NCBI GenBank assembly: GCA_964486995.1
Contig: CAZAOV010000008.1
Coordinates: 1 to 54,265, forward strand
Direction of reading: 5' to 3'
DNA from: an uncultured Gammaproteobacteria bacterium
GTDB taxonomy: Bacteria; Patescibacteriota; Patescibacteriia; SG8-24
DNA length: 54,265 nucleotides
A program made the translations under genes and the position numbers. Numbering within the stretch: position 1 is the stretch's first letter; each line of letters opens with the position of its first letter. Positions 2,095 to 4,409 of the stretch are shown here, in pieces. The notes under the pieces were generated by a model. That model did not search any database. It was not told where the DNA came from and was given only the letters and a program-made list of their open reading frames with translations.

Positions 2095-3369
2095 TTAATA
2101 TTGAACGCCCGTAGCGCTGCCGCGGGAACGCGACGACACACTCGCGATGACATCTTTGTTGGCAGTCTCATGCAACCAAGCTTTTTTAATATCAGCAAAT
2201 TTTCCTTCGTGTAGTGCTGTCCTAATTTCCCGCATCAGGCGCATCATGAAGGCTACATTATGCACCGAAACCAAAGTGTGCCCGAGCATCTCACCGGTCT
2301 TTTGCAGATGGCGCACATAGGCACGTGAAAATCTGGCGCAAGTCGGACAATCGCAATATGGATCCAGAGGTAGCGAATCATTCTCCATGCTGGCATTGAT
2401 GTGTCGGCGCCAACGATTCTTAATGTTGCCGCCCGATTCCGGCCGCACTAACATAATACCCATTCGTGCCAACCGCGTCGGCAGAATGCAGTCAAACAGA
2501 TCCACGCCGCGCTCTACAGCTTCGAAAATGTCTTCGACCGAACCGATGCCGAGCAGATGACGAGGCTTTTCGTTTGGCAAATTATCATTGGACCATTCAA
2601 GCACTCGCAACATGTCGGCCTTCGACTTACCAAGCGAACCACCGATTGCATACGCATCAAATGGACGTTCCGCAAGATAATGCGCCGAATCCAGCCGTAA
2701 ATCCTCGTATTCCCCACCCTGCACGATGCCCACCAGCGCCTGATTAGTTTTATGCGCCGCAAGGCAGCGATCAGACCAGCACTGAGTGCGAACCAGCGCA
2801 TTCTTGGTGTACTCATAGCTAGACACCGGAGATGTGCATTCGTCCAACACCAATATCATGTCCGCACCCAGCTTCTCCTGAATCTCGATGGAGTATTCCG
2901 GAGTGAGTCGCATAAGCCGCCCGTCCAAATGAGAACGAAAAAATATTCCGTCATTATCAATTCGAGCCAACTTCGGCTTGATGGGTTTTTTCTTTTTCAG
3001 CCAATCCTTGTCGTCAAAATTATCGATTAATTTTCCGACTCCGTGTTCCAGTGCGTAACCAAGAGAAAAGGCCTGAAATCCACCGCTGTCCGTTACCATC
3101 GGTCCATGCCAGCCCATGAATTTTTGCAGTCCACCCTGTGTAGCAACAATATCCTCGCCCGGCCGCAACCAAAGATGATAGGTATTAGCGAGAGTGACTT
3201 GCACGCCAATCTTGCGCAAATCCGCCGGGTCGATAGCTTTCACCGTAGCCTTAGTTCCGACCACGATAAATTCGGGCGTATTAATTTTGCCGTGCTTTAA
3301 TTTCAAAATACCCGCGCGAGCACGGGATCGTTCATCCCTAGATGTAATTTCGAAATCTAGTATTCCCAT
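2095..3369 (-). CDS. tgt: tRNA-guanine transglycosylase (queuine tRNA-ribosyltransferase)
   Basis: [38 protein letters not shown] and Zn motif CDCPTC...H; start set at MGILDF. Confidence 0.97.
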
Positions 3370-3374
3370 AAATG

Positions 3375-3413
3375 TTATCCACATTTAGGTCCCTGGCACC
3401 GAATTGTGGATAT
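3375..3413. repeat. Intergenic element copy 1: TTATCCACA-ttta-GGTCCCTGGCACC-gaat-TGTGGATAT
   Basis: Near-identical to 50811-50850; inverted DnaA-box-like ends. Confidence 0.75.
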
Positions 3414-4409
3414 TTAATATGAAGTCGTTAGGGTGCAATGATGTCGTACGCTCATCTTTCCGATTCGTACACGCTCTTCCCAAATTAGATAATCAATTTC
3501 TCGAGAACTCGGCGAATGTCCGTTGTGAGCCATGAGCTGACGTAACATTTCCACCACATGAATGGTATTTGCGCGAATCTCGACTTCTTCCTGTGATCCA
3601 GCAATAATTTCTTTGCCGGCTTGAATTCGCTTATCCAGCTCGGGCGTGTAAATAAGCGCGCCGTGCGCTCGCATGAATTGAGGCAAACGATAATCCGCAA
3701 AGCAAGTCAGCTCATCCAACCCGGTCATTTTGCCCAAGCCTTCATTGCCAAACATCATTGCCGTGTCTGACACAAATATCTGTGCCCGCTTCAAGACCGG
3801 AAATTCAAAACCTAGATGCACACGATAATCTCGATATGACCTAAACTTTTCTACCAGCAGTCGAACCACATCGGGCGCATGCCAATTCGCGCAATCAAAC
3901 AATTTAACCGGACTTCCATCGAAGCCGTCAGCCAGCACACGCCCCACATCTCGTATATGATCAGTTCTCTCTTCGAGCAAGGGAACAATGCCGGTATCGG
4001 GTTTAAATATCTTATTAGTGTCGCGCAATTTAAGATTAGCGAGAAAATCAACGTCGTCGAGCGACATGCCATTTTCGAAAGCACGGGTCAGCATTGCGGC
4101 AACAGCGCGATACCGGCTGTCAGGACCGTAAATCTTACCCCGATACTCGACCGCAAACTTACTTGGCCAAAAACAAAAATTTACCGCATCGAGCAGTAAA
4201 ACATACATTAACGTCTTCTCTCTCCCGTCAAAAAAATGAATGGGGTCTTTTCCGACTGCGGTTGACTCACCCGCCAAACAAGACTTTAACCAAGCCGGCG
4301 GATTAACCTGTCGCAAATCAGCGGCCAAGCGCTCCAGCCCATTGACATCGATGCGTACATGCTCACTTTTCGCCGCGACCGCAGCCGCTGCATCCCTAAC
4401 TTCTTCCAT
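3414..4409 (-). CDS. qng1: Queuosine salvage protein, queuosine 5'-phosphate N-glycosylase (DUF2419/Qng1 family)
   Basis: LDAVNFCFW, KRAQIF, LTCFADYRLPQ, EVEIRA, DYLIW and C-terminal HH.T.T..Y family motifs; adjacent to tgt. Confidence 0.9.
   Translation of the reverse strand: MEEVRDAAAAVAAKSEHVRIDVNGLERLAADLRQVNPPAWLKSCLAGESTAVGKDPIHFFDGREKTLMYVLLLDAVNFCFWPSKFAVEYRGKIYGPDSRYRAVAAMLTRAFENGMSLDDVDFLANLKLRDTNKIFKPDTGIVPLLEERTDHIRDVGRVLADGFDGSPVKLFDCANWHAPDVVRLLVEKFRSYRDYRVHLGFEFPVLKRAQIFVSDTAMMFGNEGLGKMTGLDELTCFADYRLPQFMRAHGALIYTPELDKRIQAGKEIIAGSQEEVEIRANTIHVVEMLRQLMAHNGHSPSSREIDYLIWEERVRIGKMSVRHHCTLTTSY

Follow-up and report, generated by a model that had tools for sequence, protein, structure and literature searches.

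The qng1-tgt gene pair

The DNA analysed here is a contig of 54,265 nucleotides (the window; CAZAOV010000008.1, contig C8 of assembly GCA_964486995.1) from an uncultured member of the Patescibacteriota. On its minus strand lies a gene for a homolog of the queuosine (Q) N-glycosidase Qng1, followed directly by a gene (tgt) for a tRNA-guanine(34) transglycosylase (TGT) with a GGSLGK substrate-pocket loop. Gene content and comparison with related loci indicate that the two genes are likely to form a self-contained operon for direct queuine salvage, which would function without QueA and QueG/QueH. Qng1 would hydrolyse the N-glycosidic bond of scavenged Q or Q-5'-monophosphate (Q-5'MP), set free by RNA breakdown, and release queuine. 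The TGT, of the bacterial type and presumably a homodimer, would then swap G34 for queuine in a single step in the four GUN tRNAs (tRNA-Asp, -Asn, -His and -Tyr). No further maturation would be required after insertion, and QueA and QueG/QueH would be dispensable. The substrates of both enzymes are predicted, as are the outside source of Q, which would be RNA of a host or of the surrounding community, and its route into the cell; turnover of host tRNA may be its origin.

The pair was first recognised in a reading of the window's sequence, which proposed that Qng1 frees queuine and that the TGT inserts it without QueA, QueG or QueH. This original prediction is supported here by the gene content, by replacement of one module by the other in situ, and by partner-specific paralogs, all of which are genomic lines of evidence; its argument from the TGT pocket proved weaker than stated. 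The placement of qng1 directly upstream of tgt was correct, as the following coordinates show.

2095-3384, minus strand: tgt, tRNA-guanine(34) transglycosylase of the GGSLGK-loop subfamily, 429 aa (PF01702, E 1.9e-126; TIGR00430)
3385-3413, minus strand: intergenic spacer of 29 nt that separates the stop of qng1 from the start of tgt (sequence read)
3414-4409, minus strand: qng1, queuosine/queuosine-5'-phosphate N-glycosidase homolog of the Q_salvage/DUF2419 family, 331 aa (PF10343, E 2.9e-67)

Both family assignments were well above their thresholds. The TGT scored 455 bits against the equivalog model TIGR00430 (cut-off 306.75), and Qng1 scored 227.7 bits against PF10343 (cut-off 25), with profile positions 2-283 of 285 covered. 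An alternative tgt start, which is the one used by the database copy of the TGT, is present five residues later at 3369. The closest named homologs of both proteins carry Patescibacteria or Parcubacteria labels. A terminator scan detected no terminator-like site in the 29-nt spacer, and the two genes are probably co-transcribed.

Queuosine genes in the genome

The 1.49-Mb assembly (here G000) comprises 56 contigs and is 92.4% complete with 2.2% contamination; the genomes of its relatives range from 0.7 to 1.6 Mb. Family searches of the whole assembly gave no match for QueA, QueH, QueG, QueD, QueF, YhhQ or QueT, and none for IU_nuc_hydro (the QueK family) or the QueE model TIGR03365. Control genomes responded in every case. 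The original observation that the window holds no que biosynthesis genes thus extends to the assembly as a whole, at this level of completeness. Two weak QueC matches were identified as NAD synthase (NadE) and ThiI and were rejected.

A single TGT-family gene was found in G000, and no second, QTRT2-like gene. The genome has one tRNA each of Tyr-GTA, Asp-GTC, His-GTG and Asn-GTT. In total, 47 tRNAs were predicted by aragorn, including a tRNA-Ile with the anticodon TAT beside tRNA-Ile GAT. The genome also encodes ComEC, which concerns DNA uptake.

Exchange of modules within the family

Forty relatives were searched, and the family of this bacterium comprised 24 genomes (G000 and 23 relatives). 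A TGT was present in 40 of the 41 genomes, the exception being G007. Seven of the 24 family genomes (G000, G001, G005, G008, G012, G021 and G023) had a GGSLGK TGT, and family searches found neither QueA nor QueH in any of these seven. A true Qng1 gene was located directly upstream of tgt in six of them; in G012, tgt begins at a contig edge. QueA was present in 15 of the 24 family genomes, each time adjoining tgt, and the pocket loop was GGEFG in all ten of these genomes whose motif was read. Seven of the 15 also had QueH. The searches detected no QueG in any of the 41 genomes; YhhQ was present in five, all of them without qng1.

The position of the two modules on the chromosome is the same. 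After the gene order orf206-orf152-(UbiB)-Lgt-MFS/SpdSyn comes qng1-tgt in G000, G001, G005, G008 and G021, and tgt-queA in G006, G011, G016, G017 and G019. This syntenic slot is occupied by qng1-tgt(GGSLGK) or by tgt(GGEFG)-queA and never by both, and both forms occur within one genus (g11). A Qng1-dependent module has here taken the place of a QueA-dependent one. In the window, the left border of the slot is formed by the following gene.

4456-5985, minus strand: fused MFS/spermidine-synthase gene, conserved left border of the syntenic slot (NF037959, 208 bits)

This neighbour was considered as a Q importer and rejected, because it also flanks tgt-queA in the sister genomes.

The QueA-coupled TGTs of the order are themselves non-canonical. 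One family has a shortened loop, GGEFG[DYE].K, and the sister family has GGESVGY together with DQC in place of DEC. Among the TGT loci of the relatives (L013-L042), GGLAVGE was confined to two class-level outliers, and QueG and QueH are missing from many of these genomes.

Distribution across phyla

The comparison across phyla used 80 Qng1 loci, all in named genomes (Chloroflexota, Bipolaricaulota/Acetothermia, Desulfobacterota and others). At 22 of these loci tgt was immediately 3' of qng1 on the same strand, and the encoded loop was GGSLG in 21 cases and GGALG in one; one of the 22 linked loci is identical to the relative G008. The remaining 58 loci showed no tgt within the flanks available. 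Of the 21 cassette genomes outside the Patescibacteria, 12 had a second, canonical TGT (GG[LV]SVGE) adjoining queA, with the GG[SA]LG TGT standing beside qng1. The presence of two partner-specific paralogs in one genome argues for different TGT substrates. The other nine genomes, whose cassette TGT was the only one, all lacked a canonical QueA: seven had none, and two had a divergent QueA-like gene (approximately 255 bits). In five Qng1-bearing Chloroflexota with an unlinked tgt, the main TGT had a GGLS[VL]GE loop of canonical length, and QueA was present.

A further 80 unselected metagenomic TGT loci served as a control; they came from a search for archaeal relatives that covered one of 64 metagenome parts and gave mostly canonical TGTs. 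The sole GGSLGKS TGT among them was also the only one beside Qng1, and none of the 79 others had this neighbour. Adjacent queA was seen at 24 of the control loci, all with [LTI]SVGE or LAVGE loops.

Divergent QueA-like genes, scoring 248-266 bits compared with 400-460 for orthologs, were noted in G042, G043, G045, G047 and G059. They are additional to a normal queA in three genomes and are the sole QueA-like gene in two cassette-only genomes.

Phylogeny and archaeal relatives

A quick IQ-TREE analysis (LG+G4) was performed on 60 TGT rows with E. coli as outgroup. The GGSLGK TGTs of the family fell in a starred clade with archaeal-labelled sequences, apart from the GGEFG clade of the same family. 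All 34 GG[SA]LG rows were on one side of a branch with SH-aLRT 82.9, after four near-identical, differently labelled rows had been dropped. Holding all TGTs of the family as one clade was borderline worse (p-AU 0.048, for a group named after the tree had been seen), and holding both families of the order together was rejected (p 0.00016). Horizontal spread of the qng1-tgt cassette is likely, in a direction that the tree does not fix. At the borderline p-AU, a foreign origin of the family's GGSLGK TGT was considered but not adopted.

The nearest outgroup to the Patescibacteria clade consisted of archaeal-labelled GGSLG TGTs. Seven such proteins (P0154, P0165, P0174, P0175, P0176, P0182 and P0194) are of the bacterial type, have a GGSLG[KN]SK loop and are 54-57% identical to the TGT of the window. 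Their labels are Nanoarchaeia and Woesearchaeota (DPANN), Thermoplasmatales (on a 1.82-Mb contig) and Thermoproteota. Two other TGTs, P0141 and P0145, labelled Eisenbacteria and Binatia, are identical or nearly so to those of Patescibacteria relatives (the G023 group), probably through mis-binning of contigs.

A wider proposal, which we put forward tentatively and consider rather doubtful as it stands, is that TGTs with the GGSLGK loop make up a paralog family of their own, dedicated to queuine, which, together with Qng1, forms a mobile two-gene cassette that has moved across bacterial phyla and into archaea. If this were true, some archaea would carry Q34-modified tRNA, which, to our knowledge, textbooks deny. 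The queuine pocket of the family (Leu231 deleted, Glu235 lost, Met260 replaced by Leu) would also be a solution different from the eukaryotic Val233Gly.

The Qng1 protein

The best solved relative of Qng1 was the enzyme of Sphaerobacter thermophilus (StQng1; 7u07/7uk3, E 8.9e-57), ahead of human QNG1 (1.7e-36). Residues named in the accessible excerpts of PMC9881137 were mapped through an alignment to StQng1, and are given here as StQng1 residue and equivalent. The nucleophile Asp231 is kept as D239, as are the other residues of the catalytic network: K199 (K207), D69 (D74), N72 (N77), D207 (D215) and the C-terminal Tyr, which is Y331, the last residue. These catalytic positions (Asp231/Lys199, D69/N72/D207 and the C-terminal Tyr) are intact in all five family cassettes and all 21 cassettes of other phyla compared. 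The residues for 7-deazaguanine recognition (D298 to D306, W302 to W310, I203 to I211) and for ribose stacking (F75 to F80, Y232 to Y240) are also kept. In the pocket for the cyclopentenediol (P46, W48, H53, Y93, W94 and W299), four of the six residues are identical. One region of the protein has its own insertion.

4236-4286, minus strand: region of the 13-residue Qng1 insertion, residues 42-58 (Qng1 alignment)

Matches in G003 and G016 that appeared to place Qng1 beside a QueA-type TGT were rejected as true Qng1; they lack the D69, N72, Y93 and H53 equivalents. They represent a divergent Qng1-like lineage (G003 contig C72, locus L138, 2227-3216; G016 contig C68, locus L137, 5090-6082), and the G003 gene is directly 5' of a GGEFG-type tgt cut by the contig end. 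G000 itself has a more distant Q_salvage-like paralog of 326 aa (26.8 bits, with a Cys-rich C-terminus) on contig C10 at 7960-8937 (locus L012, 1357-2337). Such paralogs occur sporadically (G000, G007, G014, G015 and G036) and independently of tgt, G007 being without any TGT.

The TGT protein

The best matches of the TGT in the PDB were the enzymes of T. maritima (2ash, 7.9e-92) and Z. mobilis (approximately 1e-89), followed by human QTRT1 (1e-76). Alignment to the Z. mobilis enzyme showed that the catalytic equivalents are kept (Asp102 as D99, Asp156 as D181, Gln203 as Q222 and Asp280 as D298), and the zinc site CxCxxC...H is present as CDCPTC...H. Three features pointed out in the original prediction were all found in the translation: the motif AIGGSLGK, the DEC motif with its bacterial-type Cys, and an insert (28-29 aa) after GGFQAFSL.

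2626-2643, minus strand: GGSLGK substrate-pocket loop, residues 248-253 (translation; HMMER and MAFFT alignments)
2836-2844, minus strand: DEC motif, equivalents of Asp156/Cys158, bacterial-type Cys kept (translation; alignment to solved TGTs)
2971-3057, minus strand: 29-residue TGT insert following GGFQAFSLG (translation)

The pocket loop is one residue shorter than the canonical GGLAVGE, and the canonical Glu235 is absent. Both HMMER and MAFFT placed a deletion at Leu231, so that positions 232, 233 and 234 are Ser, Leu and Gly and Glu235 is matched by Lys. A MAFFT comparison of 38 GGSLGK-type with 20 canonical TGTs gave the Leu231 deletion and the Leu equivalent to Val233 in 38 of 38. These two changes separated the groups, along with the replacement of Tyr258 by His, of Met260 by Leu and of Val262 by Ile, the residues that follow DEC, and the insert. 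Read without a gap, the loop would have Gly at 233 and so agree there with the queuine-type signature in the literature, and the sequence alone cannot choose between the two readings. Among the 120 best of 8000 scored TGT homologs, 114 had GGSLG and 115 had DECT.

The insert was reflected in the distance between the Asp102 and Asp156 equivalents, which is 82 in the TGT of the window compared with 54 in E. coli. This distance is 78-91 in GGSLGK-type TGTs, 79-81 in the QueA-coupled GGEFG TGTs and 54 in canonical TGTs. The insert had been listed in the original prediction as a feature of the TGT; being common to GGSLGK and QueA-coupled GGEFG TGTs, it is a trait of the clade and not a marker of specificity. 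The description of the GGSLG pocket as Chlamydia-type was not confirmed; the excerpts of PMC11570991 show GGSLG for Anaplasma phagocytophilum. In that organism the loop was modelled 4.0 A from queuine, and the model leaves room for the base (PMC11570991, supplementary Fig. S1).

Evidence against direct salvage and alternative explanations

Several observations weigh against direct queuine salvage by this pair. Two residues of the Qng1 cyclopentenediol pocket are changed (W94 to R101 and W299 to Y307), and the 13-residue insertion lies beside this pocket, between the equivalents of W48 and H53, which are spaced by 17 residues in this genus only and by 4 in all 86 other compared sequences. Of the 5'-phosphate contacts named in the excerpts of PMC9881137, R80 and K233 are conservatively replaced (K84 and R241) and Q306 is lost (V314); the other five family cassettes have A, D, V or S in place of R80 and I or V in place of Q306. 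With these phosphate contacts partly changed, Qng1 may prefer either Q or Q-5'MP, and a weaker preference for the nucleotide than in StQng1 is predicted. In the TGT, the equivalent of Val233 is Leu and not Gly in the HMMER and MAFFT alignments, and Glu235 is replaced by Lys. GGSLG matches the queuine-type signature GG[LS][AS]G, as given in the excerpts of PMC11570991, at positions 1, 2, 3 and 5, with Leu at position 4. The retained Cys158 is a further point, the eukaryotic QTRT1 having Val there. The QueA-coupled GGEFG sister TGTs have the same loop length and the same insert, and sequence features alone therefore do not discriminate specificity. No known Q-precursor transporter was found in the assembly, which is only 92% complete, and the searched literature contained no biochemistry on a GGSLGK-type TGT. 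Finally, the transporter beside an Acidobacteriota qng1 was reported to carry preQ0/preQ1 and not Q (excerpts of PMC11130926).

Some of these observations would also be expected if the TGT inserted preQ1 (or preQ0) and the tRNA stayed in that form, as proposed for Bartonella, with Qng1 freeing a different 7-deazaguanine base. The retained Cys158, the Leu at the Val233 equivalent in the gapped alignment, the Qng1 pocket changes W94R, W299Y and Q306V and the substrates of the Acidobacteriota transporter all fit this explanation, and Bartonella sets a precedent, with a tgt-only genome that makes use of preQ1 (excerpts of PMC11570991). We nevertheless regard it as unlikely. Mature tRNA contains no preQ1 nucleotide, which would leave a nucleotide hydrolase with little substrate, and Qng1 retains its catalytic residues and those for 7-deazaguanine, with four of six pocket residues identical. 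Neither YhhQ nor QueT was found in the assembly for preQ1 uptake, and the 12 genomes that pair the cassette with a canonical preQ1-type TGT and queA argue that the substrates differ.

The pair might instead recycle the cell's own queuine from tRNA turnover, with net supply by another, unknown route or none, or the TGT might take both queuine and preQ1; we consider this quite improbable as a full account. StQng1 is a Q-5'MP/Q hydrolase that prefers Q-5'MP, a product of tRNA decay (excerpts of PMC9881137), which is in keeping with recycling, as is the lack of an identified importer in the assembly. Dual specificity has been reported for the TGT and YhhQ of Bartonella (excerpts of PMC11570991). 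Recycling cannot, however, create Q without synthesis genes, so that an external source would still be required; it refines the proposal of direct salvage and is compatible with it. An action of the transglycosylase on DNA, as in DpdA, or at another tRNA position, with Qng1 supplying the base, is highly improbable. The one hint of it was a weak match to the DpdA model (22.9 bits, cut-off 200), far from the score obtained with TIGR00430. The TGT has the zinc site and the full bacterial TGT architecture, and no dpd-like genes were seen among its neighbours, which are Lgt, UbiB and MFS/SpdSyn.

Other features of the locus

A scan for promoter-like sites detected one weak site upstream of qng1.

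4421-4449, minus strand: weak sigma-70-like site TTGACG-17-TACAGT, 5' of qng1 (promoter-like site scan)

The region contained six such sites compared with 4.9 expected by chance, and with a number so near chance the site is no evidence by itself. Downstream of tgt, a 627-aa protein is encoded at 114-1997 on the minus strand. Its N-terminus resembles a signal peptide, it has a stretch rich in Gly and Ser as well as a PEPEPEPEP linker, and it matched no Pfam family. The protein is conserved in G001, where it is encoded 3' of the slot, and in G016, close to tgt-queA.

Significance

Direct queuine salvage in bacteria has been established for a few pathogens and for Sphaerobacter, and queuine-accepting TGTs are still predicted from a short loop motif. 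Genomic context offers a cleaner marker: Qng1 and the TGT with the shortened GGSLGK loop occur as a pair across phyla. Where both routes exist, this TGT stands alongside a canonical tgt-queA pair, and in reduced genomes it replaces that pair in situ. This pattern provides a testable rule of specificity and natural pairs of paralogs for structure-function work. It also helps with the annotation of Q metabolism in uncultured groups, the Patescibacteria among them, in which dependence on Q may reflect reliance on neighbours.

Zallot 2014 reportedly mentions the clustering of qng1 with tgt. Bacterial Qng1 and queuine salvage in Sphaerobacter are already published (excerpts of PMC9881137), as are queuine-inserting bacterial TGTs (via excerpts of PMC11570991), and the neighbourhoods of Qng1 and bTGT have already been mined for transporters (excerpts of PMC11130926). 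In the literature accessible to our search, we found no description of the GGSLGK subfamily as the partner of Qng1, of its coexistence with tgt-queA, or of the in-situ replacement in Patescibacteria.

Comparison with known systems

The indirect salvage of Clostridioides difficile, by the hydrolase QueK and the lyase QueL, also starts from queuosine (excerpts of PMC11130926). That route regenerates preQ1 as the substrate of a canonical TGT and depends on QueA together with QueG or QueH, whereas in the present assembly these genes, like IU_nuc_hydro/QueK, were not found. In Chlamydia trachomatis, the importer YhhQ is combined with a bacterial TGT reported to insert queuine directly, in a genome without queA, queG or queH (excerpts of PMC11570991). 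This system differs in that YhhQ was not found here, where the Qng1 hydrolase would supply the base, and in that the signature GG[LS][AS]G is missed at position 4. The tgt-only genome of Anaplasma phagocytophilum has the identical GGSLG loop, its fit to queuine coming from a model, and the excerpts of PMC11570991 report no Qng1 partner for it.

Qng1 of Sphaerobacter thermophilus (PDB 7U07, 7UK3 and 7U91) is a bacterial ortholog whose catalytic and base-recognition residues are kept here, and the published logic is the same, namely salvage of queuine by a bacterium that lacks genes to make Q de novo (excerpts of PMC9881137). In the Sphaerobacter sp. genome searched, tgt is unlinked to qng1, the loop is GGLSVGE of canonical length and QueA is present, whereas here the two genes are arranged as an operon, the loop is GGSLGK and QueA is absent. 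The eukaryotic system of QNG1 with QTRT1/QTRT2 would share the two chemical steps, from Q-5'MP to queuine and from queuine to tRNA. The original prediction had called the module eukaryote-like, and this applies to the logic of the pathway only: both proteins are of the bacterial type and not derived from eukaryotes, and both match bacterial structures best. The TGT is encoded by a single gene, with no QTRT2-like subunit gene found and with Cys158 kept, and Qng1 stands closer to its bacterial than to its human counterpart.

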